From a virus (Duplodnaviria; Heunggongvirae; Uroviricota; Caudoviricetes), in IMG/VR virus record IMGVR_UViG_3300046692_000385: a stretch of 51,577 bases of DNA. One strand, given 5' to 3'. Position 1 is the stretch's first letter; each line of letters opens with the position of its first letter. The notes under the pieces are model-generated. The model did not search any database, was not told the DNA's origin, and worked only from the letters and a program-made list of their open reading frames with translations. Positions 1,293-49,995 of this stretch are shown piece by piece. Both the position numbers and the translations under genes were made by a program.

Positions 1293-1325
1293 GCGTCGCG
1301 CTCTGGGAGTCGTCCAAGTGGACCG

Positions 1326-1355
1326 ATTATACAGTCAGACCTGACTGTTATTCAA
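1326..1355 (-). promoter_or_regulatory. sigma70-type promoter for tail fibre with palindromic operator filling the spacer
   Basis: TTGAAT-AACAGTCAGGTCTGACTG(18)-TATAAT on minus strand; core 1333-1346. Confidence 0.8.
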
Positions 1356-1539
1356 TCTTCGGAAAAGACTCCTTTACAGCGGTGCAGTGCTCGATCCAGG
1401 CAACCGTTTCGGCTGGCAGTTCGACGCCCGATTCCTTGAGCGCGGCGAACCCCTTCATGAGCGCGTCGAGCTGGTCGCCGAGACTCATATAAGCGGCTTG
1501 GCGCAGCGGCGTCGGGTCAACTTTGTGGTGGATCTTCAT
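1348..1539 (-). CDS. Small tail-associated protein (63 aa)
   Basis: Overlap-coupled ORF between tail tip genes and fibre. Confidence 0.6.
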   Translation of the reverse strand: MKIHHKVDPTPLRQAAYMSLGDQLDALMKGFAALKESGVELPAETVAWIEHCTAVKESFPKIE

Positions 1540-1919
1540 GCTTGCGTGACCTCAAAAGTGGCGTCGAGCATCGGCCAGGCATCGACCTTGACTGTGTAGG
1601 TGCCGGGGTGACTGAAGGAAAGCTCGACCGTTGCGTCGGTGCAGGCGTGATCGACCCCTTCAACCGTCACCATGCAAGGCGCCGGCACGTTCTTGAGCGT
1701 CATGCCTTCGAGCGTGGTGGGGTTGGCGGGGCGCGCTACGACTGCGCCCTCCTTCACGTAGTGGGTCTCGGGCGTGCCGACGCCCAGCACCAGGCTGCCA
1801 CCCTCGGGCGCCGCCTGATACGCGAACATGAAGGTCGGCACACTGCCGAAGAACAGGATGCGTCCTTCGGCGTCAGCGGCGACATAGTGCGTGGCAGAAC
1901 CGTCAGAAATGATTGTCAT
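1536..1919 (-). CDS. Tail-associated hypothetical protein (127 aa)
   Basis: ATGA overlap with J stop; beta-rich C-terminus. Confidence 0.6.
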   Translation of the reverse strand: MTIISDGSATHYVAADAEGRILFFGSVPTFMFAYQAAPEGGSLVLGVGTPETHYVKEGAVVARPANPTTLEGMTLKNVPAPCMVTVEGVDHACTDATVELSFSHPGTYTVKVDAWPMLDATFEVTQA

Positions 1920-4900
1920 CGCTTGGCCTCAAAAATTGCTGTCTGGACATTGGAGACGTTTGAGCCGCTCGCGCGAATGCTCACCGTGTAGGCGCCGTTC
2001 ATGCCAGTGATGCGCATGAAGGAACTCGCCCGATCGCCCCGGTCGTTACTGATCGCCAGGTATTGACCATTGACCGTCACCGTGGCAGAGCCCGCCTGGT
2101 TGGAACCGGTGGTCGAGTTATACATGCCGCAGTTCGCCGAGATGAACACCAGGACGTCGCCGCCCGAGGCGTAATAGGTCGGGTCGCCCGTGCCGCCCCA
2201 CGACGCCATTGTCGTCACGGCGTTGCCGGCGATACGCAGCGTGTCGATCTGGGCGGTGCCGATGTGGGCGGTCTGGATCTGTGCCGAGCCGATCTTCGCC
2301 GCCGTGATCTGCGCGTCACCGATCTTCGCGGTGTTGATCGCCGCGTCGCCGATGATGGCGCTGTTGATGATCACCTGCGGGTTGCCGTAGACCGCACCCA
2401 CCGTGAACGGCCGGATGCCCGGGTAGCCCGGAAGCTGGATCGAGAAGGTGTCCGCGCGCACGGCGAACTCGCTCACGATGCCCTGACCCACCGGATACGA
2501 GGCGAGACCGAAGCCCGACACGTAGCCATTGTTGTCGATCTTGACCGTGTATTGCGCGTTCAGGCCGCCGATCGAACTCCAGGCGCTCGAAATCGAGGCG
2601 GTGTTGGAGTCCACCTTCGAATTCACCTGCGTGGTGTAGTTCGCTTGCGCCGTGTCGCCCGCTGCGCGCGCGCTGATTTCGGTCTGCACGTTCGCATTGG
2701 TCGTGCCGAGCGACGCATTGACGCTATCGATGCGGGTCGAGAGCGCCCCGTCTGCGCTCGCGCGGGCGGTCTGCTCGGTGCTGATCGCGGCCATTGCCGG
2801 CTGCGTGATCGAGGCCGGGCGCCATTCGACGTCCGTGAAATACCAGCGGTTGGCGTCGTCGGTGCCCGTGATGTTGATGTTGATCCAGAGCTCCGCCTGC
2901 ACGTAGCCGGCGGGGATCGTCACGGAACCGGCGATGCGCGTCCAGGTCTTGGTCGCAGCGAGCGTGGCGGCCGGCATGAAGGCCGCGGTGCCGGAGCTGG
3001 TCAGCAGGCGCAGGCCAAGCGTGAGCGTGGCGGCCGCGACTGGGGTTGCGGCGTTGAGCTCCAGGTAGTGCTGCTGGCCCGGTGTCACGTCCACGATACG
3101 GCCGGTGAAAAGGCTGTCGCGCTGGTTCTGCTTGAAGACGTTCGCCGCCGGCGCCCCGGAAGGCACGTCGGAGAGCGTCTTGCTCATCACCGTGAGACCC
3201 GACCAGCCGGTCGTGCCGTTGCTGCCGACCGGGTTCGCGCAGAGGTTGGTCGGATCGACGCCGAAGCTTGCCGCGACGGTCGTGATCTGAGTCGCGAGTG
3301 CGCTGTCGGCCGCGGTCCGCGCGTCCGCTTCCACCTGCACCGCTGCCGTGTTGCTGCCGGTGTTGGCCGCTACCAGGTCAATGCGGGTCGAGAGCGCGCT
3401 GTCGGCGGAGGTGCGCGCGTTGGTCTCGGTCGTGATCAACGCGGTGTTGCCGCTCGTCTGCGAGGCGACCGTATCGATGCGGGTCGACAGTGCCCCGTCG
3501 GCCGTGGCGCGCGTCGTCTGCTCGCTCTGGATCAGCGCGGCGTTGCTGCCGGCGGAGGCCGAGACCGTCGCGATCTGGGAGGCGAGGCTGTCGGTCGCGC
3601 TCTGGCGAATCGTCTGCTCGGCGGTGATCGCGGTGGTCAGGTTGCTGGAGAGCAGCGTCTTGGCCGTGTTCACGCGCTCGTTGACCGAACCGATGATCGA
3701 GGCCGGTGCGTCCACCAGGTTGATACGCGTCTGGAGTGCCGGGATCAGTTGCGAGTCCTTGAGCACGCCAGCGGCGATCGCGTTCACGTCCATGTAGGGC
3801 GTGACGAAGTGAAACTCCTGCGACGGGATCGTCTCGTCCAGCCCGAACGCATCGTAGGGCACGATGTGGAAGTAATAGTCGGAGTTGAACATCAGGTTGG
3901 TGAGCAACACCGATGTATCCGGGCCGTCATAGGCCGGCACCGTCGACACTTCCAAATCGTTGATCCAGCGCAGGTAAATCTGGGCGCCCGCGTAGTCCGA
4001 ATCGTCCGTGTGGACGAAGTTGATCTGCACGCGATCGTAGGCGGGCGAGACCGTGACCGCGCTCACCTGCGGCGGCGGGTTGTAGGCATCGAGCACCGCG
4101 GGGCTGCCGATATGGTTGAAAATGTCGCGCGCGGCGATCTCGAACGTCAGGCGCCGGTGCGTGCCGTCGGCGACGTTCTTTTCAAACGTGTAGATGTAGG
4201 AATTGTCGGTCGTGTGCTCGGTGCGCAGGAGCTTGTGGCTCGAGTCGTAGACCCGGACCTCGTAGTCCTGGAAGTGCGGGTCGCGCGTGCCCGAGTCGGC
4301 GCCGTTCGCCTCACTGCCGAATTCGAAGGAGCTCGTGACCGAGTTGTAGTTCCAGTAAAGCTTGCAGTCGCGGCCTGCCCACACGAAGTCAGCGCCCGAG
4401 ACATCGGCGACGGCGATGTTGCCGACGTAGCCGATCACCGTGTAGCTCTGGGTCGGCGCGTTGTCGTATGCCGCGCGCTTGCCCCAGACGTCGTAGGCCA
4501 CGACCTTCACCGTGATCTTGTCACCGGCGGCGAGCCCCGAGATGACGCAGCTTGTCGCCGCAGCCACCGACCGGTAGAGCGAGTAGCCGGAGCCGTTGAC
4601 CGCCATATAGACGTCGGCGCCCGCATACGAGCCCACCTGCGGCGTGTCCCAGGCCGCGCGCACGTCCGAGAGGATCTGGGTGCCCGAGACGTAGGTTTCC
4701 TCATACACGGAGAGCGACAGCACCTCGCTGATCGCCGCAGCCTCTGCAGGCAGGGTCGGCGCGACCAGGGTGGAGGTCACATCGTCGTAGCTGGAGAGGT
4801 CATAGACCGCCTCGTTGTATTCGAGCGCGGTGATGTGGCGGTTCAGGCTCGAGGTCGCGAGCGTGATCGACTTCACACGGAAAGGCTTTTTGACCTTCGT

Positions 4901-7663
4901 CGCCTCGCCGAACATGTAGTTGGTGAACTGCTCGGGCGCGTAGGAGAGGCCGCTCTTGAGCGTGATCGTGTCGGTGGTGCCAGCGACCGTCATGACGTCC
5001 GCGTCCGTTACCACGTCCGTGTCGAAGAGTGTCGCCATCTGGCCCGCGGCGAACCCCGTCACGTCATCGACGTAGACCCCATCGGGCACCATCGAGAGAA
5101 TCGACGTCTCCTGACCGCCCGCGGCGCGGATGCGGTTCACGCGCACGGCCGAATTCACGCCACCGACGATCTGCACGAAGTTGCCGATCACCGACTGCAC
5201 GATCGGGGTTCCGCGCACGACGTAGTTCGTGAGCAAGAGCACCTTGTAGTTCTTGCCCGCGTCCATCGAGACGGGCTTGTCGAGCTTCAAGACGCTTGCG
5301 GTGGACCCGACTTCGAGTCGTCCCGACTGCGCCCAGTTCGGCATGTCGTGTTGCACCAGAATCACATCGCCCGGCGTGCAGGCGATTGCTTCGAGCGGCG
5401 CGTCGAACGAGACCGTCTGCGAGAGATAGCGATTCAGGTTCAACTGGAACGCGCCTTCCTTGTAGGCGGTCGTGATGTTGTCCACGCCATAGAGCGTGAT
5501 GGCCGAAGGGTTTTGCTTCTTGCCCGATTGCGCGAGCGTCGGGTCCACTACCTTGACGGTGTGGGCCTTGTTGTAGTCGTTCTTGTCGTAATAGGTAACA
5601 TCGATCTCGGTGGCGCGATCGTTCTGCCCAAGCCACGTCATCTTGAACGTGTCTTTGACGATGTTGCCCATGCCGAACATCATCACCGGCTCGGAGGGCG
5701 CTTCGGTTGCCACGTAAAAGCGCGTGCCGACCTGGATCACCTGGGCGTGACCCACGCGCAGGATGAGCGCGGAGGCGTCCCAGAAGGTCATCGTCTGGTC
5801 AAGCGGCCCGTTCCAGGTGAGCCCGGCGCTGGTGCAATAGCTCGCCCACGCATAGACCGAATCCATGTCGATGCGCGCGAGGTCGATGCCCGCGCCGTAG
5901 ATCGGGTTGGTTGCCGCGTCGAGCCAGATCCAGGCCGGATTGGTCGAGGGCAACTGCGAGGTGGTCTGCGAGCCATCGCTGCGCTGGTAGACCGTGATCA
6001 GCTTGCCGCCGTGCAGGAACGAGACAGTCGGCACGCCCGAGAGCTGGTCGTCCATCTGCACGCGGATCGCCAGCAGCGCCGTGTGGTTGTAGGCCACCTC
6101 GTCGAAGGTAATTTCGTTCAGGTCCGTCAGATACGTGTCCGACTGGGACGTGTCGCTCGTGTCGGTCGGAAACGACGTCAGCACGCCGTTGCCTGACGGG
6201 TCGTAGGTCTGAATCGAGTAGTTCACGTCGCGGCGGATACGGAACTCGTATTTGCCCATCGTGAGCTGCGGCGAGGTGAAGCTGCGCCGAACCGTCGAGC
6301 GCAGGTTGTCGGTGATGTGCAGATCGGACGAGGAGCCCGTCGTTTGCACCGTCATCGACACGCCTGCGGGGGTCGCGGCGATGGCGCTGCCCGGCCACGC
6401 GACGAGCGTGCGCCCGACGTAGCCGCCGTATTTGTTATAGGCGGCCGTCACCTGAGCAGCGGAGCCGTTCGCGCCGTCGCTCTGGAACACCGTGAGGCCG
6501 TCGATGGTCAGGAACTCGGCGTTCTCCGGCATCGTCTGGATCGTGAGACCGTTGACCGTCGGGTAGACGATCACGTTCGAGTAGCTGGTCTCCGTGTCCG
6601 AGCCCATCGGCACCCAGTCGCTCTCCTTGGTGCTGCCATACGGGCGGTATTGAACGTTGAGGGAGACCGAGTTCGATTCGAACGAACCGTTCTTCTTGTT
6701 GACCGAATACAGGCCCGAGGGGCAGTTGAAGTCCAGGCGCACCTGTTCGACTTCAGAGAGCGTCGAGGTCGAGATCCACGAGCCGTCCGAAGGCAGCATG
6801 ATCTGCTTGCTGACCGGGCTGATGACCTTGTTGAACCAGTCGATCGGCGCTTGCGTGCTGTAGCCCAGACGCGTCTGGGTGGTCACGTTGGCGAATTCGC
6901 TGATCGCGCGCCCATTCAACTGAATGTCGGAGATGCCGGCGATCGGCCCCTCCCCGGCATTGATCAGCATGTAGAGGAACTGGTTGTTGCCGTTGTTCGC
7001 CGCGTCCGAGCCGCTCGTATTCGCCTCGGTAAACATCCCGATGATGTTGCCGGCCGTGCGAAAGCCGTTGCCGTAGACGACGGGCACCGGAATGCCTTCG
7101 GAGCTGGTGTTTTTTGCGCCGTCCGCGCCGTAGCTTGCCGAGTTGCTGATGCTGGAGGCGCCCGAGGTGGAGGCAGCCGGCAGGAGCGCGTTCACGAGCA
7201 GCGAGCCCGCGATCGAGACCACCATCGAGGCGGCCATGCCGGCGACCATCATGCCGGTGGTCGTCACGCCCGCAGCCACACCCGTTGCCGCGCCGTAGGC
7301 GGCCATTGCGAGCCCGCCCGTGTAGACCGCAGCAATGGCAACCGCAATCATGCCGACGATACGGAAGATGCCCTTACCACCACCGCCACGCGGAATCGGG
7401 CACATCACCACGTAGTCGTCGGGCTGCGGGTAGGTCTTGGCAAGCACCGCGTGCGGGACGATGCCGCCATTCATCGAGATGACGTAATCCTCGGCGAACA
7501 CCTGCGGCAGATAGGCGGCCAGCGACTTGTTCTTCCGGTAGGGCCACTTGTCGACTTCGATGGCGCGAAACGGCTCAAACGGATTGGTAATCCGCTTGAC
7601 CGTGATGAACTTCTTTTCGCGCGCCTTAGTGGCTTTGCGGGGCTTGGCTGTCGCTGTATTCAT
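1916..7663 (-). CDS. Central tail fibre / host-specificity protein (lambda J-like) with N-terminal tail-assembly I-like segment
   Basis: About 1915 aa; hydrophobic GMIAVAIAAVYTGG segment, IPVPVVYG and EGPIAG motifs, FN3-like region, EQTARASADxALSTRIDTV repeats, YTVKIDNNGYVSGFGLA...FAVRADTF (DUF1983-like), AxIxxAKI pentapeptides; start chosen at MNTAT (7663), track start 7696. Confidence 0.88.
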   Translation of the reverse strand: MNTATAKPRKATKAREKKFITVKRITNPFEPFRAIEVDKWPYRKNKSLAAYLPQVFAEDYVISMNGGIVPHAVLAKTYPQPDDYVVMCPIPRGGGGKGIFRIVGMIAVAIAAVYTGGLAMAAYGAATGVAAGVTTTGMMVAGMAASMVVSIAGSLLVNALLPAASTSGASSISNSASYGADGAKNTSSEGIPVPVVYGNGFRTAGNIIGMFTEANTSGSDAANNGNNQFLYMLINAGEGPIAGISDIQLNGRAISEFANVTTQTRLGYSTQAPIDWFNKVISPVSKQIMLPSDGSWISTSTLSEVEQVRLDFNCPSGLYSVNKKNGSFESNSVSLNVQYRPYGSTKESDWVPMGSDTETSYSNVIVYPTVNGLTIQTMPENAEFLTIDGLTVFQSDGANGSAAQVTAAYNKYGGYVGRTLVAWPGSAIAATPAGVSMTVQTTGSSSDLHITDNLRSTVRRSFTSPQLTMGKYEFRIRRDVNYSIQTYDPSGNGVLTSFPTDTSDTSQSDTYLTDLNEITFDEVAYNHTALLAIRVQMDDQLSGVPTVSFLHGGKLITVYQRSDGSQTTSQLPSTNPAWIWLDAATNPIYGAGIDLARIDMDSVYAWASYCTSAGLTWNGPLDQTMTFWDASALILRVGHAQVIQVGTRFYVATEAPSEPVMMFGMGNIVKDTFKMTWLGQNDRATEIDVTYYDKNDYNKAHTVKVVDPTLAQSGKKQNPSAITLYGVDNITTAYKEGAFQLNLNRYLSQTVSFDAPLEAIACTPGDVILVQHDMPNWAQSGRLEVGSTASVLKLDKPVSMDAGKNYKVLLLTNYVVRGTPIVQSVIGNFVQIVGGVNSAVRVNRIRAAGGQETSILSMVPDGVYVDDVTGFAAGQMATLFDTDVVTDADVMTVAGTTDTITLKSGLSYAPEQFTNYMFGEATKVKKPFRVKSITLATSSLNRHITALEYNEAVYDLSSYDDVTSTLVAPTLPAEAAAISEVLSLSVYEETYVSGTQILSDVRAAWDTPQVGSYAGADVYMAVNGSGYSLYRSVAAATSCVISGLAAGDKITVKVVAYDVWGKRAAYDNAPTQSYTVIGYVGNIAVADVSGADFVWAGRDCKLYWNYNSVTSSFEFGSEANGADSGTRDPHFQDYEVRVYDSSHKLLRTEHTTDNSYIYTFEKNVADGTHRRLTFEIAARDIFNHIGSPAVLDAYNPPPQVSAVTVSPAYDRVQINFVHTDDSDYAGAQIYLRWINDLEVSTVPAYDGPDTSVLLTNLMFNSDYYFHIVPYDAFGLDETIPSQEFHFVTPYMDVNAIAAGVLKDSQLIPALQTRINLVDAPASIIGSVNERVNTAKTLLSSNLTTAITAEQTIRQSATDSLASQIATVSASAGSNAALIQSEQTTRATADGALSTRIDTVASQTSGNTALITTETNARTSADSALSTRIDLVAANTGSNTAAVQVEADARTAADSALATQITTVAASFGVDPTNLCANPVGSNGTTGWSGLTVMSKTLSDVPSGAPAANVFKQNQRDSLFTGRIVDVTPGQQHYLELNAATPVAAATLTLGLRLLTSSGTAAFMPAATLAATKTWTRIAGSVTIPAGYVQAELWININITGTDDANRWYFTDVEWRPASITQPAMAAISTEQTARASADGALSTRIDSVNASLGTTNANVQTEISARAAGDTAQANYTTQVNSKVDSNTASISSAWSSIGGLNAQYTVKIDNNGYVSGFGLASYPVGQGIVSEFAVRADTFSIQLPGYPGIRPFTVGAVYGNPQVIINSAIIGDAAINTAKIGDAQITAAKIGSAQIQTAHIGTAQIDTLRIAGNAVTTMASWGGTGDPTYYASGGDVLVFISANCGMYNSTTGSNQAGSATVTVNGQYLAISNDRGDRASSFMRITGMNGAYTVSIRASGSNVSNVQTAIFEAKR

Positions 7664-8021
7664 AAAATCCGACGATCCGTTGCTTCCAGTGGTCAAGGCG
7701 CTCTGTCACCACGCCCCCGGATTGCTCCCAGGTGTGGATAAAGCGAGAGTCAGTAATGACTATTCCGCAGTGCGCGATAAAGCGCCCTGTTTTGAACATG
7801 ACGAGCGCGCCGACCTTCGGGTGGTCCAGGCGCTTCCAGAATTCGCGCGAGCCCACCATCAGCGCGTGAATCATCCCCGCGTCCTCGGGTGCGCCGTAGT
7901 CAGGGACCGTGATGCCCTGATCGCGCTCGATGATGTAGCGGCACAGCCCGTAACAGTCGAACTTGTCCGGGCCGCGCGCACCACGCTCGAAGGGAATGCC
8001 TATCAGTTCCGCGTTCGTCAT
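7626..8021 (-). CDS. NlpC/P60 tail tip protein (lambda K-like)
   Basis: GPDKFDCYGL catalytic Cys motif, HCGIV and FIHTW His motifs. Confidence 0.88.
   Translation of the reverse strand: MTNAELIGIPFERGARGPDKFDCYGLCRYIIERDQGITVPDYGAPEDAGMIHALMVGSREFWKRLDHPKVGALVMFKTGRFIAHCGIVITDSRFIHTWEQSGGVVTERLDHWKQRIVGFYEYSDSQAPQSH
7748..7761. promoter_or_regulatory. Operator palindrome inside NlpC/P60 coding sequence
   Basis: AGTCAGTAATGACT, perfect core, about 85 nt upstream of the J start. Confidence 0.55.
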
Positions 8022-8025
8022 TTTG

Positions 8026-8052
8026 GATAGTCAGTATTGACTATCATTTTAG
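8026..8052 (-). promoter_or_regulatory. Operator and candidate -10 upstream of NlpC/P60
   Basis: TAAAAT followed by GATAGTCAATACTGACTATC (8-bp arms). Confidence 0.7.
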
Positions 8053-8684
8053 CGGTAAATCGAGCCCGAGGGAACCAATGAAGGCATGCCCCCGAAATTC
8101 ACCACGTTGCTGTGTGCGCGGCAGCCGAGCGTGCCATCGAGCGTGTGGTCGCAGGTGCCCAGCGAACCCGAGTAGCGGCAGGTGTTGACGTCCTTGTAGA
8201 CCCACGGGCAGAAGTCGCGGCGCTGCACGCGCTTCGGGAACTGCCGGGTGAGTGCGTTCTCCGCGCCGAGCGTGAAGGTGACTTCGTAGTTGGTGGCGCT
8301 CGCGGCGGTCACTTCGAAATACTCGGCCACTTCCGGGTCGCCGTTGAGGTTGTTCGAGGCATAGACCGAGATCCTCACGTTGAACCCCACCCCGCCCGAG
8401 TAGGCGTCCATCTTCGAGAGCACGGTCTGCGTGTAGTCGGCAAAGGAGAGCGAGATCGAGGGCGTTTCGCCGGAGGCGGCCGACAGCTCGATCGCGAACT
8501 GAATTGCCATGTAGGTCTGCCCACCTACCACCACGTCTTCGGTGTTGTTCACGTAACGCAGCGTTTCCAGCACCGCGCCTGTTACCGGGTCCGGCACCTC
8601 GATGTCCAGAAGCGCGAGGTAGGCCACATCGGAGGCGATGCGGTTTTTCTCGATAACGGACGCGACGGAGATCTTGTTTGCCAT
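8049..8684 (-). CDS. Minor tail protein (lambda L-like hub)
   Basis: C-terminal four-Cys pattern CPWVYKD..C..GTC......C; position between distal tail and NlpC genes. Confidence 0.8.
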   Translation of the reverse strand: MANKISVASVIEKNRIASDVAYLALLDIEVPDPVTGAVLETLRYVNNTEDVVVGGQTYMAIQFAIELSAASGETPSISLSFADYTQTVLSKMDAYSGGVGFNVRISVYASNNLNGDPEVAEYFEVTAASATNYEVTFTLGAENALTRQFPKRVQRRDFCPWVYKDVNTCRYSGSLGTCDHTLDGTLGCRAHSNVVNFGGMPSLVPSGSIYR

Positions 8685-8687
8685 GTC

Positions 8688-9053
8688 TTAGGCCTCTTGC
8701 ACTTTGAAGGAGACGTCGTAAAGGTTGGTGCCGCCGTAGCCCGAGTAGGAGAACTGGAGCTGCGTATCGGTCGTAAAGCGCACCGCCACCACCGTTTTGT
8801 CGGTGGGGTTGGTCCAGTTGAAGATCAGCGAGCCGCCGTAGCAGGAGTCGAAAAACGCCTGCAACGCGGTCTTTTGCGCTTCGTTGAGGGCGGTAAAGCC
8901 CGAGGTGAAGGTCTTGCGCGGTCGGCGCGTGTGACGCGGGCGCGTCGAGACGTAGCCGCCCTCCGCCGAGGTGGCGACCGCCGTGTTTTCCTGCTGAACC
9001 CCGTATTTGCTGGAGTCCTGCAGATCCATGAAAGGCATCGTTGCGTAGCTCAT
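8688..9053 (-). CDS. Distal tail protein (lambda M-like)
   Basis: 121 aa directly after tape measure; GGYVSTRPR, F+WTNP pattern. Confidence 0.72.
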   Translation of the reverse strand: MSYATMPFMDLQDSSKYGVQQENTAVATSAEGGYVSTRPRHTRRPRKTFTSGFTALNEAQKTALQAFFDSCYGGSLIFNWTNPTDKTVVAVRFTTDTQLQFSYSGYGGTNLYDVSFKVQEA

Positions 9054-9063
9054 GCGCGGTTCC

Positions 9064-12000
9064 TTACTTCATCGCTGATCGAAGCCCGTCGCGGAAGCTG
9101 CCGGGCGTTTGGGCGTTGGTGAGCACCACGTCGAGGATCATTTGCTTGCCATCGAAGCGCGGCTGACCCTGCTGCGCGCCCACCGACTGATTCGTCTGAT
9201 TGATGACGTTCACCGTCACCGAGGGAGCGGCGCCCGTGCTCGACTGACCGGAGCCCGAGCCGCCGTTGCCGCTGATCGTGACCGGGATGCTGCGACCGTC
9301 GGGCAGCGGCACGTAGGCTTCTGCCATCGAACCTTCGCCGTAGAGGGCGAGCTGCGGGCTGTCGGCCACGCCGCCGTTGGCGTATTTGCGAAGCTGTGCG
9401 ACGCCCTTGTTGGTCATGATCCCGCCATTGGCGAACGCGGCCGGCATCGTGAAGCCGTAGGTGTTTGCGCCCACGCCCGATGCGGCGGCCGAACCCGAGC
9501 CGCCCATGCCGAAGGCCGAGCCCATCGAGCCGAAAAGCCCGCCCAGACCGCTGCCGGTGCTGGAGCCGCTCATCGACGCGAGCGCTTGGGCCGCCACCAT
9601 CGCGGCGTTAGCAAGTGCGCCCATCGAGGTCGTAGCCGCCCCTTGCACGTTGCCGGCGGTGATCATCTCCGTGATCTGCTGCGTGGTGGCTTGCGTCGCC
9701 TGCTGCACGCCCTGCTGCGTGAATGCTTTCAGGCTCGTGGTTGCGGCATCGGTCGCTGCTACCTGGGCGGACGCACCGGCGCCGGCTGCGGCCGACGCAC
9801 CGAGCCCTGCCGCAGCGCTACCGGCGCCCGACGAGGCATTCGGGAAGACCAGTTGGTTGATCTTGCCCGTGAGCGCATCGAGACCCAGCTTCAGCGGCGT
9901 GGAGAAGGTCTCCTGCAGCTTGATCTTGAGCACGTCAAGCGCCATGCTTTCCGCGAGCTTGCCGAGGTGGAACTTGCCGGTCTGGACGAACTGCATGATC
10001 TCGTCGATCACGCTATTGGCCCACGAGGCTTCGGCCTGCTGCATCTGCTCGAAGGTGTCCTTCCAGGCGCGCACGAGCCCATCAAGCGGCGACTCAAGCA
10101 GGCGCGCGCGTTCAGCAGCGACCACCGCCAGGTGCTGGTTGAATTCCTGCTCAGCCTGGAGCTGAAGCGCCGTTGCCTTCTTGGTCAGGTCCGCGCGCTT
10201 GTCCGGGTCCGTCTCGGCTGCAATCTCGGCGTCGCTCGATGTCTTGAGCGCCTTCGAATTCAGGTTGTATTGGTCGAGGTCCTTCGAATTCTTCGCATCG
10301 AACTCGGCCGTCTTGCGCTGGCTGGTATACGGCAGCAGACCCATCATGGTCTTGTCGTCGCTCTCCTTGAAGCTGGAGGCGAAGTTCAGGAGGTCGGCGC
10401 CGGCGCGGTTTGCGAGCGCTTCGTTCTTGCGCTTGGTCCACTCTTCCCAGCCCTTGGTGCCCTTGCCGAGCCGTTCTTCGGCGCGCGCAAGTTCGCGCTC
10501 AAGCGCTCGCATCTCGCGAGTCTGCTTGGCCGCGCCGTTTTCGCTCGCGTTCTCTTGCGCCGCTTGCAGGTCGTTCTCGGTCGAGGCGAGGCGCTCGTTC
10601 ACGAAGACGAGGGCCTTCTTCTGCTCCTCGAGCTCCTTGTTCTTGGCGAGCTGCTCGACCGCATCCTTCACCTGCGCGTTGCCGGTGTTGAGCGAGCCGT
10701 CGGCGTTTTTCCACTGACGATTGCGCGGGTCGTGCGCCTTGTCGAAGTCGCCGCCCTTCCACTTCGCGGTGAATTCGGTCAGCGCGTCCGCACGCAGGGC
10801 GTCCATACCCTTCGGCTGGCGCGAGAGCAAGGCGCCCAGGTCCGAGCCAAGCACGTCGCCCTTCGCCTTCAACTGCTCCATGAACTTCGTGAAGGGGTCT
10901 TCGAACTCGCGTTTCTGGTGGCCGCCGGTCGTGATCGCGTTGGTGATCGCCGGATTGGCGTCTTCCAGGTCGATGCCGCCGTGCTTCTTCCCGGGCGCGG
11001 CCGGACGTTGCGGACCCACCTGATCCGCATTGCCCTTGACCGTGTAGCCGCCGTTAAAAAGGCGCTCGCGCTCGATGCGATCCGCCTCAGCCTTTGCCGA
11101 GACGGTAGCTTGTTGTGCTGCGCGCTGGTTCGGGCCGCCGTTCTCGTAGCCGTGAGCGCCCGTCGCCTGGCGTGAGACAAACTTCGTCGGCGCCGGTGCG
11201 TTAGGATCGGCCGGCTTGTCGTCGTCAAAGAGCTTCCACGACTTGATGTCCGCGAAAACGCCCTTCAGCTTTTTCCAGAACTCCGTGCTCTTGATGACGA
11301 GGCTGTCGAACCAGTGCGTGAACCAGTCGGAGACCTTGTGGCCGCCCACTTCCAGCCCGCCAATCAATTGCGTCAGATCCCAGGCGACCAGCAGCCACCC
11401 CACATACGGGATTGCGCGCATGAAGAGGCGCCCGGCCGTCGCGACAAACGCGCCGATGCTCGCAAGCCACGCCGTCATGCCAGCGCTTGCGGTGGTGGCG
11501 GCCGTAGCGGTAGCGGCCGCTGCTGCTCCTGCCTGGGTGCCGACCAGACCGAAGCTCGCGCTGACCGCCTTCAGGATGCCACCGACCGTGCCGGTGAGAC
11601 TCAGGAAGCCACGCAGCGCAAGCACCGCACCGGTTGCGGCGGTTGCGATGGTGGTCAGTTGCAGCCCGACCGGGTTGTCCGTGCCCCACTGCTTGAAGGC
11701 AATGAGAATGTCGCGCACATATTGCAGCACGCTCGCGAGCGCCGGCAGCACCGAGGAGCCCACTAGCACGGCGATGTCCGAGAGCGAGGCCTTCACCTGT
11801 TGCAGCGAGCCGTCGTAGGTCTTCTGGAGCTCGTCGTTGACCTGATTGACGCCCTTCGAGTTGTTGACGGTCTCGCGCTGCTCATTGATACGCTGCGCCG
11901 AGTGCGGGTCAGCGGCCTGAGCCATTGCGCCGGCGGCGGTCGTCTGGATGCCGAGGGCAGCGAGCAGTTTCGAGAAGGCGAGCAGTTGCGCGTGCTCGTC

Positions 12001-13821
12001 GTTGATGTCGGCGCCTTCGTAATACTTCGCCCGGTTCTGCTTCTTCTGGGTGAAGGAGAGCAGTTGGTCGTAGTGCTTCTGCAGCCAACCCACCGGGTCG
12101 CCCATCGCCAGATCGGTATCGATCAGGCCCGCGTGCTTCGCCTGGCGCTTGACGAGGCGCGGGTCGGCATTGGGGTCGATCGCGCCGGTGTTGAGCAGCC
12201 CCGAATCCAGGAAAATCTGCGTCGCCTGGTCAGTCAGTTGCTTGCCCTGCGCATACTGCTGGAACATCTTGAACGACGTGCCCACGCGCGAGACCCCGGC
12301 ACCGGACCCGCCCATGCCGCCGCCCATCGTCTTGCTCTGGTCGACGATCGACATCAGGTTGATGAGGCCGTCGTCGGTCAGGCGTGCCGCGCCCGAACTC
12401 ATCATCCGCAGCACGTTTTCCGCGTCCTGCATCGTGACCTTGCCACCGGTCGCGGTGCTGATCTTCTGCATCAGCTCCATCGTGCGCTTGGCACCCTGCG
12501 GGTCATAGACCTGCTGACGCGTTTCCACCACGCCGTAGAGGTTGCGGATCGTGTTTTGCGTGTCGCCGTGCGCGTAGCCGAGCGTGGCGAGGTTGTTCGC
12601 CGCCTTGACCGCTGTGTCGAGCGTGGCATCGATGATCATCTGGTTGTTGCTACCAACCGAGCCGATCGCAGCCAGGCGCGCCTTCACAGCGTCAAGCTGC
12701 GAGAGGAATTTGTTGGTGTTCGACAGATCGAAGGCCTTGTCGAAGAAGGCTTTGTCCTGACCTGCACCGAAGTTAAACGATCCTTCGGCCACCTGCAGGC
12801 GCTGCATCTCGGCCGCGTCGTTGACGCTCGCCTTGAGCCCCGCTTCGATCTTCATGCCCGCCCAGACGCCGGCCATCGCACGGAGCGACCCGGTAAGCGC
12901 ATCCGCTTGCCCGCGCACGTTCCCCATGCCGTTACCGGCCGCGCGGATCGCGCTGCTCTGGGAGTTGGTGGCGGTGGTGTTGGCAGTGGTCGCGCTCGTG
13001 AGCGAGTTGGTCGCCGTCGTATTCTTGTCGGTCGAGGCGGCGAGGTTGTTGTTCGCGCGCACGAGCTGCACCACGGTGCCCGCCAGCTTCGAGATGCCGG
13101 CTTCGAGCTTGGTGATGGCGTTCGCGAGTGCGGTGTTCGAGGTGTTGGCTTTTGCGCTCGCGTTGCCCGCAGCGGTCGTGCCTTGGGCGGCCTTGTTCGA
13201 GGCGCCCGCGAGTTGCTGGTTGGCGAGTGCCGCGCGCATGGCGGCGTTCGGTGCCGTGAGAAGTGCTGCGGCTGCCCGCTGTGAGGATGCGGCGACCGAG
13301 TTGTTGGCGCTGTTGACCTGACCGGCGGAGGTTGCGGCCGCCTGTCCGGCCTGCTGCAAGCCTTCACGCGCGCGCAGGAGCGCCGGGATCGACTTGTCGA
13401 AATTTTGTGCAAGCGTGCCGGCCGCGGCTGCCGCCTGATCGACGCTCTTGGCGACCGGAGCTGCCGCTTCGCCCACCGAGGCGATGTTCTTGCCCGCCTT
13501 CGCGGCAATGTCGGAGGCTTCCTTCAGGCCGCCGGCGAGCGACGACATCGAGCTTGCCACGGCTGCGACCGACTTCTGAACCGGACTGATCGAGGCGTCG
13601 GCGGCCTTAAAGCCCGAGGCGAACTCGCCGAGCTTCCCGGCGATGCTCTCCATCGTCTTCGCGGCGTTCGCGAGGGGCGTCTCCACCCCTTTCGCGGACT
13701 TGGCGAGATCCTGAAGCCCCTGGTCCAGAGCGTCAGACGTGCTCTTTGCCTGCTTGGTCTTCAGAGTGAAGCCATTGTCGTCCAGTGTCAGGACAACCTT
13801 GATCTCGCCACCAATTGCCAT
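9064..13821 (-). CDS. Tape measure protein (1585 aa)
   Basis: Long Ala-rich helical ORF after chaperones; N-terminal IKVVLTLDD; C-terminal FANGG...GEGSMAEAYVPLPDGRSIPV. Confidence 0.92.
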   Translation of the reverse strand: MAIGGEIKVVLTLDDNGFTLKTKQAKSTSDALDQGLQDLAKSAKGVETPLANAAKTMESIAGKLGEFASGFKAADASISPVQKSVAAVASSMSSLAGGLKEASDIAAKAGKNIASVGEAAAPVAKSVDQAAAAAGTLAQNFDKSIPALLRAREGLQQAGQAAATSAGQVNSANNSVAASSQRAAAALLTAPNAAMRAALANQQLAGASNKAAQGTTAAGNASAKANTSNTALANAITKLEAGISKLAGTVVQLVRANNNLAASTDKNTTATNSLTSATTANTTATNSQSSAIRAAGNGMGNVRGQADALTGSLRAMAGVWAGMKIEAGLKASVNDAAEMQRLQVAEGSFNFGAGQDKAFFDKAFDLSNTNKFLSQLDAVKARLAAIGSVGSNNQMIIDATLDTAVKAANNLATLGYAHGDTQNTIRNLYGVVETRQQVYDPQGAKRTMELMQKISTATGGKVTMQDAENVLRMMSSGAARLTDDGLINLMSIVDQSKTMGGGMGGSGAGVSRVGTSFKMFQQYAQGKQLTDQATQIFLDSGLLNTGAIDPNADPRLVKRQAKHAGLIDTDLAMGDPVGWLQKHYDQLLSFTQKKQNRAKYYEGADINDEHAQLLAFSKLLAALGIQTTAAGAMAQAADPHSAQRINEQRETVNNSKGVNQVNDELQKTYDGSLQQVKASLSDIAVLVGSSVLPALASVLQYVRDILIAFKQWGTDNPVGLQLTTIATAATGAVLALRGFLSLTGTVGGILKAVSASFGLVGTQAGAAAAATATAATTASAGMTAWLASIGAFVATAGRLFMRAIPYVGWLLVAWDLTQLIGGLEVGGHKVSDWFTHWFDSLVIKSTEFWKKLKGVFADIKSWKLFDDDKPADPNAPAPTKFVSRQATGAHGYENGGPNQRAAQQATVSAKAEADRIERERLFNGGYTVKGNADQVGPQRPAAPGKKHGGIDLEDANPAITNAITTGGHQKREFEDPFTKFMEQLKAKGDVLGSDLGALLSRQPKGMDALRADALTEFTAKWKGGDFDKAHDPRNRQWKNADGSLNTGNAQVKDAVEQLAKNKELEEQKKALVFVNERLASTENDLQAAQENASENGAAKQTREMRALERELARAEERLGKGTKGWEEWTKRKNEALANRAGADLLNFASSFKESDDKTMMGLLPYTSQRKTAEFDAKNSKDLDQYNLNSKALKTSSDAEIAAETDPDKRADLTKKATALQLQAEQEFNQHLAVVAAERARLLESPLDGLVRAWKDTFEQMQQAEASWANSVIDEIMQFVQTGKFHLGKLAESMALDVLKIKLQETFSTPLKLGLDALTGKINQLVFPNASSGAGSAAAGLGASAAAGAGASAQVAATDAATTSLKAFTQQGVQQATQATTQQITEMITAGNVQGAATTSMGALANAAMVAAQALASMSGSSTGSGLGGLFGSMGSAFGMGGSGSAAASGVGANTYGFTMPAAFANGGIMTNKGVAQLRKYANGGVADSPQLALYGEGSMAEAYVPLPDGRSIPVTISGNGGSGSGQSSTGAAPSVTVNVINQTNQSVGAQQGQPRFDGKQMILDVVLTNAQTPGSFRDGLRSAMK

Positions 13822-32409: not shown

Positions 32410-32862
32410 TTACATGCGCTCGTTGACGAACTTCCGGTAGAGGTTCTGCGCCCCGCCCACCTTGAGCGCGCACTCGTCGTAATTGGGGCCAGCCGTGCCG
32501 TCGCGGTTATACATGCCCCCGCAAATCCCCGAGAGCCGGATCACGGTCTTCGCCCCCGAGGGCTCACGCGTCGCACGGAAGCTCGGCATGCCGTATTGCA
32601 TCGGCGGGAAGGTGTCGATGAGCACCTCGTCGGAGAGGCGAACCGCCATCCCGCTACTCTGCATCACGTAGGTCTTGGTGATTGCCCAGGCCTTGTCACA
32701 GTTCACGGGCCCGACGCACTCCACCCAGGCGCGACTCTCGGCTTCCTGCAGCTTCACCTCCACTGCTTCATACCCGGCACGGTTGCGCGCTTCCTGCTCA
32801 GCGGTCATGCAGCCACAGAGTGCGAGCGCAGCGAGCCCGCCGGCGACGATGGTCTTGATCAT
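32410..32862 (-). CDS. Lipoprotein
   Basis: MIKTIVAGGLAALALCG|C lipobox; TATAAT at 32899-32894. Confidence 0.75.
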   Translation of the reverse strand: MIKTIVAGGLAALALCGCMTAEQEARNRAGYEAVEVKLQEAESRAWVECVGPVNCDKAWAITKTYVMQSSGMAVRLSDEVLIDTFPPMQYGMPSFRATREPSGAKTVIRLSGICGGMYNRDGTAGPNYDECALKVGGAQNLYRKFVNERM

Positions 32863-33172
32863 TTTTTGGTCTCCCTCGGTCAATTCGAGCGAGATTATAG
32901 ACAGCGCGCAAGCGCCGCGGCACGAGAACTATAAGGTTCCACCCACCACTCACCCATCTACCCAAGAACCCAGTGTGTTCTGTGCCATGTGGCGTGTGTT
33001 CGGGCGCGGATTGGACTGCGGGAGGTGCTGCGGGGATGCGGCTGTATAAGGAAGCGCGGACCTGGGCGGCCTGGCTCTATAAGGAAGCGTGTTTGGGGGT
33101 CTGAGGCGAGGAAGGGAGGGCCACCTGCACCGCTGAGATTTCCTAAGACTTCGGTCTCTGCGGTTCGCGCGG

Positions 33173-33343
33173 TTACTGCGTCGCGCGCTCTACACAAATT
33201 CGCGTTGCGTTGTCGCTCGCGCGTTGAATCTCGCGCAGACGTTTCGCGTAGTGTCGTTCTGTGCTTTCGATCAGATACGCGAGCGCACCGAATGCGAGAA
33301 CAGCAGAGATGATAGCGAAGAGTGAGAACGGTTCGAAGTGCAT
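33173..33343 (-). CDS. Small membrane protein (56 aa; not in track)
   Basis: MHFEPFSLFAIISAVLAFGALAYLIESTERHYAKRLREIQRASDNATRICVERATQ; own promoter. Confidence 0.65.
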   Translation of the reverse strand: MHFEPFSLFAIISAVLAFGALAYLIESTERHYAKRLREIQRASDNATRICVERATQ

Positions 33344-33375
33344 GCTTGTGTGTCCGTTTGAGTGAGTGTGTAGAG

Positions 33376-33419
33376 ATTCTAGCGTGCGTTACACAATACG
33401 TGCAATGTCTTTTTGCACG
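33376..33419 (-). promoter_or_regulatory. sigma70 promoter with CGTGCAA-N7-TTGCACG inverted repeat
   Basis: TTGCAC-18-TAGAAT; 24-bp element shared with 34475-34498. Confidence 0.72.
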
Positions 33420-33585
33420 AAAACATAGAACGACTTTTCGAACGTAAAACCTTGACCGTGAAACGTGCGAGTAACGATAACGAACATAGCGATTAAACCG
33501 GTTTAGAGACGTTTTGAGCGGTTCGCAGCACATGCAGCTACTCTGCGTTGTCTGACTGCTGCGAACCGGTTAGAGCGCTTCTGAG

Positions 33586-33601
33586 TGTTTCACGTGAAAC
33601 A
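33586..33601. promoter_or_regulatory. parS: Chromosomal-type parS site within a 26-bp perfect palindrome (33581-33606)
   Basis: TGTTTCACGTGAAACA, exact match to the widespread bacterial parS consensus. Confidence 0.82.
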
Positions 33602-33614
33602 CTCAGTTCTGACT
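33601..33614. promoter_or_regulatory. One-mismatch operator overlapping the parS palindrome arm
   Basis: ACTCAGTTCTGACT. Confidence 0.55.
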
Positions 33615-33623
33615 AACCGCTAA

Positions 33624-34373
33624 TTACGCGGTAAACATCGCTTGCACTTTTTTTGCTGCTGCTGCGTCAGTCAGTGTGATCGAGTCATCTTTGCGCGACT
33701 TAATGACGTTGCACACATTCAGAAAGCGCAACATTTGACGCGTGCTAGATGCTTGCGTGCTTGCGGTTGACGGTTCGCACATCTTGAACGAGCGGACCGC
33801 TTGAGTCTGCATATCTTCGCTAAACACGACTTTGTTAGAGAGCGACATTTGCGAACCGCGATTCGACAGCGACTCAAGCTTAATGAGATTTTTGAGAATC
33901 GCTTGCGTATAACCGTCGAAAACCGAAGTCATACCGCACGCAAGTGCAAAAATCGCTTTGCGGATTTTCTGTGCTGCGTAAATCGCAATGTAATCGTGCG
34001 CAGTCTTATCCGTGACAGCGTAGCAGCGCGACAGCGTAACAAAATCGACGTCGAGCGCTTGACACTTTTCGATAGCGAGCAACGCATTGCGACCGCTCAA
34101 TTGCGACAGTTCTGCGCGCATGTTCTTTGCGAAATTGTCGTTCGGTGCGTGCTTGATACGCGTTTCAATTGCTGCGAGCAAAAGCGCTTGCGCTGCTTCT
34201 GCTTTCTCTGCTGCGCTCACTTCTGCGACTTCTGCGACGACTTCAACCGCGAGCGCTTCAACCGCTTGCGCTTCGTCATTCGTGAGCGCTTGCACTTCTG
34301 CGACCGGTTGCGCTTTTTTGCTGCGTGCGCGCTTCGTTGCTTGTGCGTTCGTTGCGTTAGCTGCGTTCGTCAT
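33624..34373 (-). CDS. Hypothetical protein (249 aa) in GG-free island; possible DNA-binding protein
   Basis: Strong promoter; Ala/Glu-rich N-terminus; C-terminal STASTQASSTRQML motif. Confidence 0.8.
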   Translation of the reverse strand: MTNAANATNAQATKRARSKKAQPVAEVQALTNDEAQAVEALAVEVVAEVAEVSAAEKAEAAQALLLAAIETRIKHAPNDNFAKNMRAELSQLSGRNALLAIEKCQALDVDFVTLSRCYAVTDKTAHDYIAIYAAQKIRKAIFALACGMTSVFDGYTQAILKNLIKLESLSNRGSQMSLSNKVVFSEDMQTQAVRSFKMCEPSTASTQASSTRQMLRFLNVCNVIKSRKDDSITLTDAAAAKKVQAMFTA

Positions 34374-34403
34374 TTTCTTTCTCGCTAGTGTGTGTTGTGT
34401 GTG

Positions 34404-34498
34404 TAGTCAGATTTGACTATCTGTCGTCGCAGCAACGTTGCTGCGACTGAGATGAATTATGAAGCATCGAAACGATACGTGCAAACTCTTTTTGCACG
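34404..34498 (-). promoter_or_regulatory. Promoter, leader palindrome and operator of ORF 33624-34373
   Basis: TTGCAC(34484-34479)-17-CATAAT(34461-34456); 22-bp palindrome GTCGCAGCAACGTTGCTGCGAC 34426-34447; operator 34405-34418. Confidence 0.8.
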
Positions 34499-34613
34499 TT
34501 TTTCATGTGCGTGCATTTTCGCAACAAAAGCACGTTAGAGCACGTGCTCTATTGACGGGGCTTTTTGGTCTGCGTAGACGCGACGTCAATGCGGGTGATT
34601 CTCATTGGCGGAG

Positions 34614-34723
34614 GTGGATGAGGACGAATCTCGTTGGCTCGGGTGGATGAGGATGCTCCTTGTCCTTGGGAGTGGATGAGGACGATTCGCATTTAGGCCC
34701 GTGGATGAGGACGCTCCTCATCC
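34614..34723 (+). repeat. Four GTGGATGAGGAY repeats at exact 29-bp period
   Basis: Starts 34614, 34643, 34672, 34701; last copy closes hairpin GGATGAGGA-CGC-TCCTCATCC. Confidence 0.9.
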
Positions 34724-34788
34724 TGCGCGGCCAAGGGCGCGACGACCGCATGGGCAACGCCCTAGCACTCCCCGAGGGTCACCGCCTT

Positions 34789-34968
34789 AAACTCCCAATC
34801 AGTGTCGGCGACGGCTCCCGTCCTTGGGCCGCTCCCGAGGGCACGCCAAGGCACACCACCACGGCGCAACCCCAAGGCCACCCCTCACCGCCCCTCGGCG
34901 TTCTCCCTAGAGGAAAGGCCTTGGGCCCGCCCATAAACCCCAGTAGGGTGTCGGCGGCAGCTCCCGTT
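34789..34968 (+). repeat. 34-bp dispersed motif, copies 1 and 2
   Basis: AAACTCCCAATCAGTGTCGGCGACGGCTCCCGTC (34789-34822); AAACCCCAGTAGGGTGTCGGCGGCAGCTCCCGTT (34935-34968). Confidence 0.8.
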
Positions 34969-37456: not shown

Positions 37457-37503
37457 AGAAAGCCCGAGGGGTTCGCCCTAACGAGGCCGAGGGCAAAACC
37501 CTC

Positions 37504-37611
37504 AAATCTCCAATGGGTGTCGGCCGCGGCTCCCGTTCCCGAGGGGTAAGCCCTATACGTAGGGAAGAGGCCTGGTGAAACTTCCAATCAGTGTCGGGTT
37601 CGGCTCCCGTT
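37504..37611 (+). repeat. 34-bp dispersed motif, copies 3 and 4
   Basis: 37504-37537 and 37578-37611. Confidence 0.8.
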
Positions 37612-49548: not shown

Positions 49549-49995
49549 CTAGCCTTTGGATGAAGATTTGTATCGGTCATCGAGGTCAGGACGGTTCTTG
49601 ATCATCCAGCTTGCGAACATCAGGCAGCAGGACGCGTGATACAGATGGCCCTTGCCAGACTCAGGGTCCAGGTCCTCACCGTCATTGAAGGCTGCTTGGT
49701 GACGTGCTGCAGCATCCATCAGGCGGGACACAGAGATACCCTTGCGCCAGTTGTTGGCTGCGTACTTCTTCTCACCGAACGTAAGGACCTCAGCGACCCC
49801 GAGGAGCCACGAGGTATCCAAGAGGGACATACGGGCCTTGCCTTGGTCGTGCTTGGTTCCTTCGATGACAACCGGGTCCGCTTTGTACGGGAGGTTGTAG
49901 ATATCCTGGTAGGCCTTCAGGTCTTCGGGGTGAAGGACCGCAGGCATCGGGCCGTACGGGTGGCCCATGGCGGGGCTATTCATATGTGTTTCCAT
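49549..49995 (-). CDS. dATP/dGTP diphosphohydrolase domain protein (DUF5664-like)
   Basis: GTKHDQGK.RMSLL...FGEKKY..NNWRKG...RH...D.ESG..HL.H. Confidence 0.85.
   Translation of the reverse strand: METHMNSPAMGHPYGPMPAVLHPEDLKAYQDIYNLPYKADPVVIEGTKHDQGKARMSLLDTSWLLGVAEVLTFGEKKYAANNWRKGISVSRLMDAAARHQAAFNDGEDLDPESGKGHLYHASCCLMFASWMIKNRPDLDDRYKSSSKG

Follow-up and report, generated by a model that had tools for sequence, protein, structure and literature searches.

Local and near-total loss of GG and CC dinucleotides in one operon of a lineage of phages and phage-plasmids

Enzymes that act on DNA at very short motifs include Nt.CviPII and M.CviPII of chlorella viruses, which read CCD, and the DpdA-type system of phages, which inserts 7-deazaguanine at GA or GGC. 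Phage T5 is the classic case of DNA freed of a target, as restriction sites are absent from its first-step-transfer DNA (the EcoRI result). Published depletion of protospacer-adjacent motifs (PAMs) or restriction sites in phages is modest and genome-wide (PMC12174588; PMC4246573). The locus described here is a 1413-bp island, at 33144..34556 of a 51,577-bp stretch of viral DNA (IMG/VR record IMGVR_UViG_3300046692_000385, hereafter the window), from which GG and CC have been almost wholly removed. As far as we found, no local, near-total dinucleotide purge of this kind has been published, in agreement with a preliminary reading of the sequence alone that had drawn attention to the island and knew of no description. 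New here are a GGT/ACC rule that holds across clades, a strain-level test of selection, and the addition of Pseudomonas phage nickie and the plasmid pA52-1 as carriers beside Rhizobium phage RHEph10.

The island contains 31 GG or CC dinucleotides, the number that the sequence-only reading had counted, against 177.8 ± 10.4 expected from mononucleotide shuffles of its own bases (shuffle minimum 144). The next-lowest count among all other same-size windows of the 51.6-kb stretch is 147. Counted per 500-bp window, GG and CC together number 7-14 at 33.25-34.5 kb and 53-108 everywhere else. The island is the sole purged stretch in the window, and depletion is not genome-wide; the 115 kb of RHEph10 likewise contain a single island. 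Its base composition is 50% GC, against 61.6% for the window. As had also been claimed, the edges are sharp to a few bases: the island is bounded by CC at 33142-33143 and GG at 34557-34558, and GG/CC-rich DNA resumes immediately outside.

The surviving dinucleotides follow a rule. They comprise 26 CGGT/ACCG, 4 CGGA/TCCG and a single ACCT at 33450, so the description of 30 of 31 as CGG(A/T) or its complement, with ACCT as the one exception, stands, although the position given for the exception (33449) was one base off. The remaining 13 NGGN contexts, which cover the reported absence of GGC/GCC, GGG/CCC and TGG/CCA, are found 0 times in the island and 205-1179 times each in the rest of the window. 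CGGT itself is as common as in the genome at large or commoner, with 26 copies where the genome-wide rate predicts ~17. Since the island is enriched in CG and GC (rho* 1.76/1.70, against 1.23/1.12 elsewhere), there is no general avoidance of G+C, of GC-rich sites or of restriction sites, and on the last point the initial reading was right. Its codon claims also hold: all 4 Gly codons are GGT, all 3 Pro codons are CCG, and neither Trp nor GCC occurs. Across codon junctions there are 8 GG/CC where 40 are expected. The purge runs from ~100 bp upstream of the predicted start of the first promoter (P1) to 30 bp past the last stop codon.

In seven islands pooled, CGGT makes up 131 of the 229 surviving GG/CC; the remainder are mostly AGGT or TGGT, which appear in more distant clades. 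The tolerated core is GGT/ACC, and GGA, GGC and GGG (TCC, GCC and CCC) are removed. In nickie, RHEph10 and one metagenomic relative (L033 of the comparison set, whose loci are numbered with L), even GGT is gone or almost gone.

Several properties of the purge bear on its cause. The coding strands of 19 islands contain 269 GG and 271 CC, against ~1186 and ~1320 expected, and the tolerated contexts CGGT and ACCG are reverse complements of each other. In the same islands CG and GC are raised 1.4-1.6 fold, and the products of transitions are not in excess (CT/AG 0.91 vs 0.96; TC/GA 1.04 vs 1.20). The purge shapes codon use and codon junctions in all frames (locus L008, in which it is relaxed, uses GCC 15 times), leaves the island proteins depleted in Gly, Pro and Trp, and extends to intergenic DNA and to ~100 bp of DNA upstream of P1's predicted start.

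Near-identical strains from four other rhizosphere metagenomes allowed the constraint to be followed among recent variants. None of the 12 listed single-nucleotide polymorphisms (SNPs) in the island creates a GG or CC, where 3.8 would be expected to (P=0.004); in the flanks, 6 of 28 do. Strain insertions of 9 and 15 nt both follow the rule, their only CC lying in ACCG. In one strain the segment 33529-33581, an inverted repeat beside a parS site, is swapped for 384 other bases, whose visible 30-nt end has no GG/CC. The missing GG/CC-creating SNPs and the rule-keeping insertions indicate that the constraint acts now, and strand symmetry, compensation by CG and GC, and the SNP test together point to selection on duplex DNA rather than to a mutational footprint. 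The purge is real, conserved, symmetric and held by present-day selection at the DNA level. To this extent the suggestion that a reader of GG/CC on DNA has left its footprint in the island is borne out.

The purge can be followed through relatives of the longer island gene, which encodes a 249-aa protein, from 76% down to ~26% protein identity. Three relatives from IMG/VR, 69-76% identical, share the island, and the purge is also found at 41-55% identity, including in a Paraburkholderia metagenome-assembled genome (MAG). A profile search added 22 viral loci to the comparison. In all, ~25 metagenomic relatives are purged (L001-L007, L012-L022, L026, L028, L031-L034). The observed/expected ratio (O/E) of GG+CC within the gene is 0.00 in L033 and 0.13-0.35 at most loci. 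Six lineages, scattered over several clades, are relaxed, with O/E of 0.45-0.97 (L030, L027, L029, L008, L024/25 and L023; among them L023 at 0.97, L024 at 0.79 and L008 at 0.60). Near its island gene, L008 encodes a MazE/PemK toxin-antitoxin pair and a pentapeptide-repeat protein (L008:4125-4757 and L008:9114-9872). Both are missing from its purged close relative L004/L034, a single case from which nothing is concluded.

Cultured phages and a plasmid carry the trait as well. RHEph10 (NC_034248) has one such island in 115 kb, with 7 GG/CC against 159 expected, and ordinary GG/CC levels in the rest of its genome. Nickie has 0 GG/CC over ~1.1 kb, a stretch made up of a TTGCAC-N17-TAGAAT promoter, gp019 (184 aa) and a 107-aa open reading frame (ORF); neither product contains any Gly, Pro or Trp. 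In the Acinetobacter baumannii phage-plasmid pA52-1 the gene has 3 GG/CC against 54 expected; homologues occur on 126 sequenced Acinetobacter plasmids, pA52-1 included. In SSU5 the syntenic gene displays only a weak dip (O/E 0.57), and Stenotrophomonas phage BUCTxx99 has no island within 9 kb of its helicase gene. Carriers of the purge span four host orders: Hyphomicrobiales, Burkholderiales, Pseudomonadales and Moraxellales.

The composition of these islands affects their annotation. DNA free of GG and CC leaves long ORFs open on the opposite strand, and gene callers are thereby misled. The annotated RHEph10 gp097 (L009:15258-15938, minus strand) is such a shadow, on the wrong strand and with a nonsense translation rich in Cys and Arg; the true gene, a 204-aa ORF, lies at L009:15234-15848 on the plus strand. 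A shadow of the same kind lies in the window at 33801-34388 (+).

The island is exactly one minus-strand, two-promoter, predicted early operon plus its regulatory DNA. The first gene encodes the 249-aa protein (33624..34373, -). The second (33173..33343, -) is a 56-aa ORF with a hydrophobic N-terminal stretch, read from the translation, and is predicted to encode a small membrane peptide; its only match, to CD225, is below threshold. By sequence the promoter pair is of the host sigma-70 type. A consensus scan places promoter P1, TTGCAC-N17-CATAAT, at 34456..34484 (-), its -35 hexamer within the inverted repeat GTGCAA-N9-TTGCAC. Promoter P2, TTGCAC-N18-TAGAAT, lies at 33376..33405 (-) and is predicted to serve the 56-aa ORF. 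Both promoters include a common 27-nt element (repeat D10, copies 89% identical) that has no GG/CC. An operator-like palindrome, AGTCA-N4-TGACT, occurs 22 times in the window (1.2 expected); one copy sits between P1 and the start codon (34405..34418) and another, with one mismatch, at 33601-33614. A perfect chromosomal-type parS (TGTTTCACGTGAAACA) is found at 33586..33601, 23 bp past the stop codon and inside a 26-bp palindrome. Seven relatives (including L013-L017 and L034) have parS at the same place, and it is confined to the window's clade. Upstream of P1, still within purged DNA, is a CACGTG-centred palindrome, TAGAGCACGTGCTCTA (34536..34551).

Repeat arrays start directly outside both island edges. 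Just beyond one end is a four-unit array with 29-bp spacing and the core GTGGATGAGGA (34589..34713, +); at the opposite edge, in GG-rich DNA, are two copies of GGCT(G/C)TATAAGGAAGCG (repeat D19; 33040..33089, +). The core of the former, as GTGGATGAG, matches the DnaA box (TGTGGATAA) at 7 of 9 positions, and exactly two of its 29-bp units are lost in three other metagenomes through a 58-bp deletion (joint 34642->34701), so that near-identical strains differ in copy number. Nickie has a different, C-rich repeat, CCCCTTACACAACCA, in three copies at the corresponding edge (L038, about 5120-5220). The 29-bp array is possibly an origin or serves for protein loading. The flanks are also richer in GG/CC than the locus median, by a mean of 1.25 fold over 400 bp on each side (18 loci, Wilcoxon p ~1e-5; 34557-34956 and 32744-33143 in the window), which may simply reflect non-coding DNA or may be part of the design. 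Beside the island, in DNA poor in ORFs, are four ~50-nt copies of repeat family D1, all in one orientation and ending GTGTCGG-N6-GCTCCCGT (34772-34967 and 37487-37610), with more repeat families at 35.7-37.5 kb.

Structural-gene matches place the genome in the SSU5/nickie/RHEph10 group, and it is a phage-plasmid of this type, ~115 kb in size. The window encodes a siphovirus-type terminase, portal, major head protein, tape measure and J-like tail protein. It also encodes ParB_N proteins and ABC-type ATPases, two of each, as well as a thioredoxin, a Tad2-like protein and a UvsW/DEAD helicase. Compared with RHEph10, nickie, SSU5 and their relatives, its structural and cassette proteins show 44-54% identity, and the record of the island protein in a large protein collection lies on a 115.6-kb contig. 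BLAST searches for close named relatives, with the island and its gene as DNA and as protein, gave no match in the phage collection. DNA of the window's type was found only in rhizosphere metagenome contigs, the nearest clue to a host being the Paraburkholderia MAG. Rfam and tRNA scans of the window gave zero matches. Elsewhere in the group, the Nickievirus Nican01 (L040) has five tRNA genes beside the helicase at 13107-13674, tRNA-Gly and tRNA-Trp among them, and nickie has only Met and Asn tRNAs there. At the far end of the window, 49549-49995 (-) encodes a 148-aa protein with the N-terminal domain of a dATP/dGTP diphosphohydrolase (PF18909, E 1e-31). The region around it (47-51.5 kb) has lower GC, low CG/GC, high GG/CC and few ORFs that pass the filter on third-position GC (GC3).

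The 249-aa protein belongs to no Pfam family at E<=0.01 and matches two PHROGs that have no assigned function (phrog_4202 and phrog_9272). The large protein collection holds 42 homologues. An alignment of 29 homologues reveals a variable acidic N-terminus, a conserved core of ~190 aa and an invariant TASTQASSTR motif. The AlphaFold model (predicted local distance difference test score 83, above 90 in the core) consists of a disordered N-terminus, a helical domain and a C-terminal winged helix. TASTQASSTR falls in a helix at residues 201-217, likely the recognition helix, which is followed in the model by strands 221-224 and 231-234 that form a beta-wing. Foldseek matched the winged-helix domain to HlyU, SqrR, PagR and MarR-type repressors (probability 0.93-0.98), and the whole protein to uncharacterised proteins only. 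From its predicted fold the protein is best described as a DNA-binding regulator. The element common to both promoters, with its GTGCAA-N9-TTGCAC repeat, is a candidate binding site.

The explanation that we favour, although it is no better than evenly balanced, is target avoidance, in which the operon is kept clear of targets for some activity that recognises the GG/CC step in double-stranded DNA. Such an activity would be strictest towards GG followed by A, C or G and would tolerate GGT/ACC. An operon without targets would stay intact and expressible while GG-containing DNA, in the host chromosome and elsewhere in the phage genome, was being cut, nicked, modified or occupied. We infer that avoidance matters through the timing of operon expression: either the operon would act before the remaining genome is exposed, or the reader would block expression without killing the genome.

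Several points weigh against target avoidance. If a cut anywhere is lethal, a target-free 1.4 kb gives no protection, so an extra assumption is needed. Our searches found no GG/CC reader, and enzymes of bacteria or phages with GG specificity over two to three bases are not known to us. When the ORFs within ±10 kb of the gene at 25 loci were clustered all against all, none of the resulting families told purged loci from relaxed ones. T5, the model of first-entering DNA, has no comparable purge.

The distribution of the trait says something about the putative reader. As it occurs in phages of four bacterial orders, the reader should be carried by the phage lineage or be common to all these cells. 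Repeated independent relaxations imply that the pressure is not universal and can be lost, and relaxed lineages in several clades are what a variable external pressure would produce. On balance a function that the phage lineage encodes, or a ubiquitous component of the cell, seems slightly more likely to us than a strain-specific host defence.

A more specific version of target avoidance would explain why a local purge suffices. The island would lie in or beside a long terminal repeat, enter the cell first and be expressed while a host or phage nuclease is active, with the island alone free of targets. PhageTerm types Nican01 as 'DTR (long)', a long direct terminal repeat (DTR) of the T5 class (PMC11256456, Table 2). 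The island combines small early genes with predicted strong consensus host promoters (TTGCAC-N17/18-CATAAT/TAGAAT), and the adjoining ORF-poor, repeat-rich DNA with its arrays resembles the T5 pre-early region and injection-stop signal. Moreover, of 18 long metagenomic contigs, 8 have an end no more than 8 kb upstream of the gene. The ends map to different sites, however, with no common terminus. The terminal repeat has no place on the available maps: the Nican01 record is re-originated at terL, the nickie record has no repeated ends, and the supplements of PMC11256456 contain no coordinates. Pfam and PHROG searches recognised no nuclease or inhibitor encoded in the island. In temperate members the operon carries a lysogeny operator like that of ~20 other units. 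First entry of the island is an unlikely, if specific, account.

T5 itself was considered as a case of the same mechanism and rejected, as its first-step-transfer DNA (L041 1-9140, NC_005859) contains no dinucleotide purge, the lowest O/E being 0.43 or higher. The island proteins have no Pfam or PHROG link to the T5 pre-early proteins A1, A2 and Dmp, and a fold search returned only winged-helix regulators and uncharacterised proteins. Within T5 1-9140, AGAG/CTCT is about five-fold under-represented (13 against ~66-69 expected).

[quoted passage not shown] GG/CC is the PAM of type I-F (CC) and of many type II (NGG) systems, type I-F is common in Acinetobacter, and loss from both strands is the pattern expected of a two-base PAM. 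A patchy distribution of CRISPR would also suit the patchy relaxations. On the other side, the purge is total in phages of Pseudomonas syringae and Rhizobium, in which CRISPR is uncommon. Genome-wide CC depletion is found in P. aeruginosa phages targeted by type I-F (PMC12174588; PMC4246573). In the window and in RHEph10, by contrast, the rest of the genome has ordinary GG/CC levels, and shielding 1% of a genome from targeting has no obvious benefit. A CC PAM also leaves the tolerance of GGT/ACC unexplained.

The sequence-only reading had proposed, as one of two options, that virion DNA is modified at GG by enzymes of a cassette at 25-30 kb, and that the operon is left unmodified for use by host RNA polymerase and ParB. 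The ParB_N/ABC/'GNAT' cassette is indeed conserved beside the terminase genes, and the fact that phages are known to modify G at short motifs, as with DpdA, counts in favour. The cassette does not track the island in relatives, however. Relatives at all levels of purge (O/E 0.00 to 0.97) have its core genes (two ParB_N, ABC243, p309 and wHTH103), among them the unpurged L023 (0.97) and L024 (0.79), and so do SSU5 and BUCTxx99, in which there is no clear island. No deazaguanine, transglycosylase or methyltransferase genes were found in the window or in the RHEph10 annotation. Pfam searches of the cassette proteins gave only thioredoxin, ABC/AAA, ParB_N, Tad2-like and helix-turn-helix (HTH) domains, with no family for p309 and no base-modifying enzyme (transglycosylase, methyltransferase or Mom-like). 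Against the notion that host RNA polymerase need read only this segment speak ~20 other operator-controlled units of sigma-70 type, which lie in GG-rich DNA and need the same polymerase. Access for ParB fails as a general reason because parS is restricted to the window's clade, and parS/ParB was rejected as the cause since purged islands of other clades have no parS. Modification of virion DNA by the cassette is improbable. Two further candidates were also set aside: guanine ADP-ribosylation of the DarT1 type, for which no GG-specific motif is reported (PMC11543638), and the nick-associated motifs of Pseudomonas phages, which belong to an unrelated phage group and are 9 bp long (PMC11780129).

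Avoidance might instead operate on RNA, with GG/CC-free transcripts evading a ribonuclease, an RNA-modifying toxin or pairing of the Shine-Dalgarno/anti-Shine-Dalgarno kind. The Shine-Dalgarno regions of the island do lack GG. The chances of this account are slim, given that the coding strand has lost GG and CC to the same degree (269 vs 271), that the tolerated CGGT and ACCG are reverse-complementary, and that the purge takes in both inter-operon DNA and the ~100 bp upstream of the predicted transcription start.

Self-avoidance, in which the winged-helix protein would bind GG-containing DNA and keep its own gene free of sites, draws on a recognition helix that is near-invariant across the family and on the GG-rich repeat arrays that abut the island. 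The helix is nevertheless identical in the relaxed L023 (0.97), L024 (0.79) and L008 (0.60), and on this ground the island protein was rejected as the GG reader. Nickie and RHEph10 have different helices yet a stricter purge, and the shared promoter element D10, the likeliest autoregulatory site, has no GG/CC. Self-avoidance is very unlikely.

Least credible of all is a mutational footprint, whether from deamination or hypermutation at CC/GG (APOBEC-like, or like repeat-induced point mutation, RIP) or from avoidance of GG oxidation: sharp edges and lower GC do recall RIP-type footprints, and GG is the most easily oxidised step and abounds in the flanks (where its enrichment may just reflect non-coding DNA), but this reading is largely refuted by dinucleotide compensation (CG and GC enriched, but not CT/AG and TC/GA, which cytosine deamination would raise) and by the absence of new GG/CC-creating variants from the population, and the genes are intact and conserved with the purge persisting at saturated synonymous divergence.

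If target avoidance is taken a step further, a tentative and somewhat less probable claim follows: a widespread lineage of large phages and phage-plasmids of Rhizobium, Pseudomonas, Burkholderia-type and Acinetobacter hosts may live with an undescribed activity on duplex DNA whose target spans two to three bases, GG not followed by T, and one early operon, its proteins included, may have been rewritten so that it alone is invisible. The activity could be a nuclease, a nickase, a base modifier or a DNA-coating protein, encoded by phage or host. Its reader would then represent a new class of DNA recognition by very short motifs in the conflict of phage and host, either as a new short-recognition activity of defence or takeover or as part of a new principle by which first-acting genes are shielded. 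The loss of Gly, Pro and Trp from a dinucleotide-free operon implies a very strong and specific selective force, and we found no described system of bacteria or phages that accounts for it. With the trait present in phages that can be grown (nickie and RHEph10) and in the plasmid pA52-1, the question is directly testable.

Parts of the locus have counterparts in described systems. The island protein shares with MarR- and ArsR/SmtB-type regulators a winged-helix fold with a predicted recognition helix and wing, but differs from them in its extra N-terminal helical domain, its acidic tail and its lack of Pfam membership. With chromosomal ParABS the island shares a perfect 16-bp parS, which is a clade-limited add-on and not the cause of the purge. 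Nt.CviPII/M.CviPII and DpdA demonstrate that DNA-acting enzymes with such short recognition exist, and a GGV/BCC reader would be alike. No homologue of them was found in the window or in RHEph10, however, and we know of no such enzyme with GG specificity or from these hosts.

The closest likenesses are to systems of target loss. As in T5, a short, early, host-transcribed stretch is without the target of a possible nuclease and the rest of the genome is not, and the family includes a phage with a long DTR. In T5 the avoided target is the 6-bp site of a known enzyme and first entry is established, whereas in the island it is a dinucleotide. Published PAM depletion shares with the island the dinucleotide CC/GG and the logic of escape from recognition through removal of the motif. 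The island differs from it in the depth of the purge (O/E 0.0-0.3), in its confinement to one operon of ~1-2 kb, in the altered composition of the encoded proteins and in the exemption of GGT/ACC.

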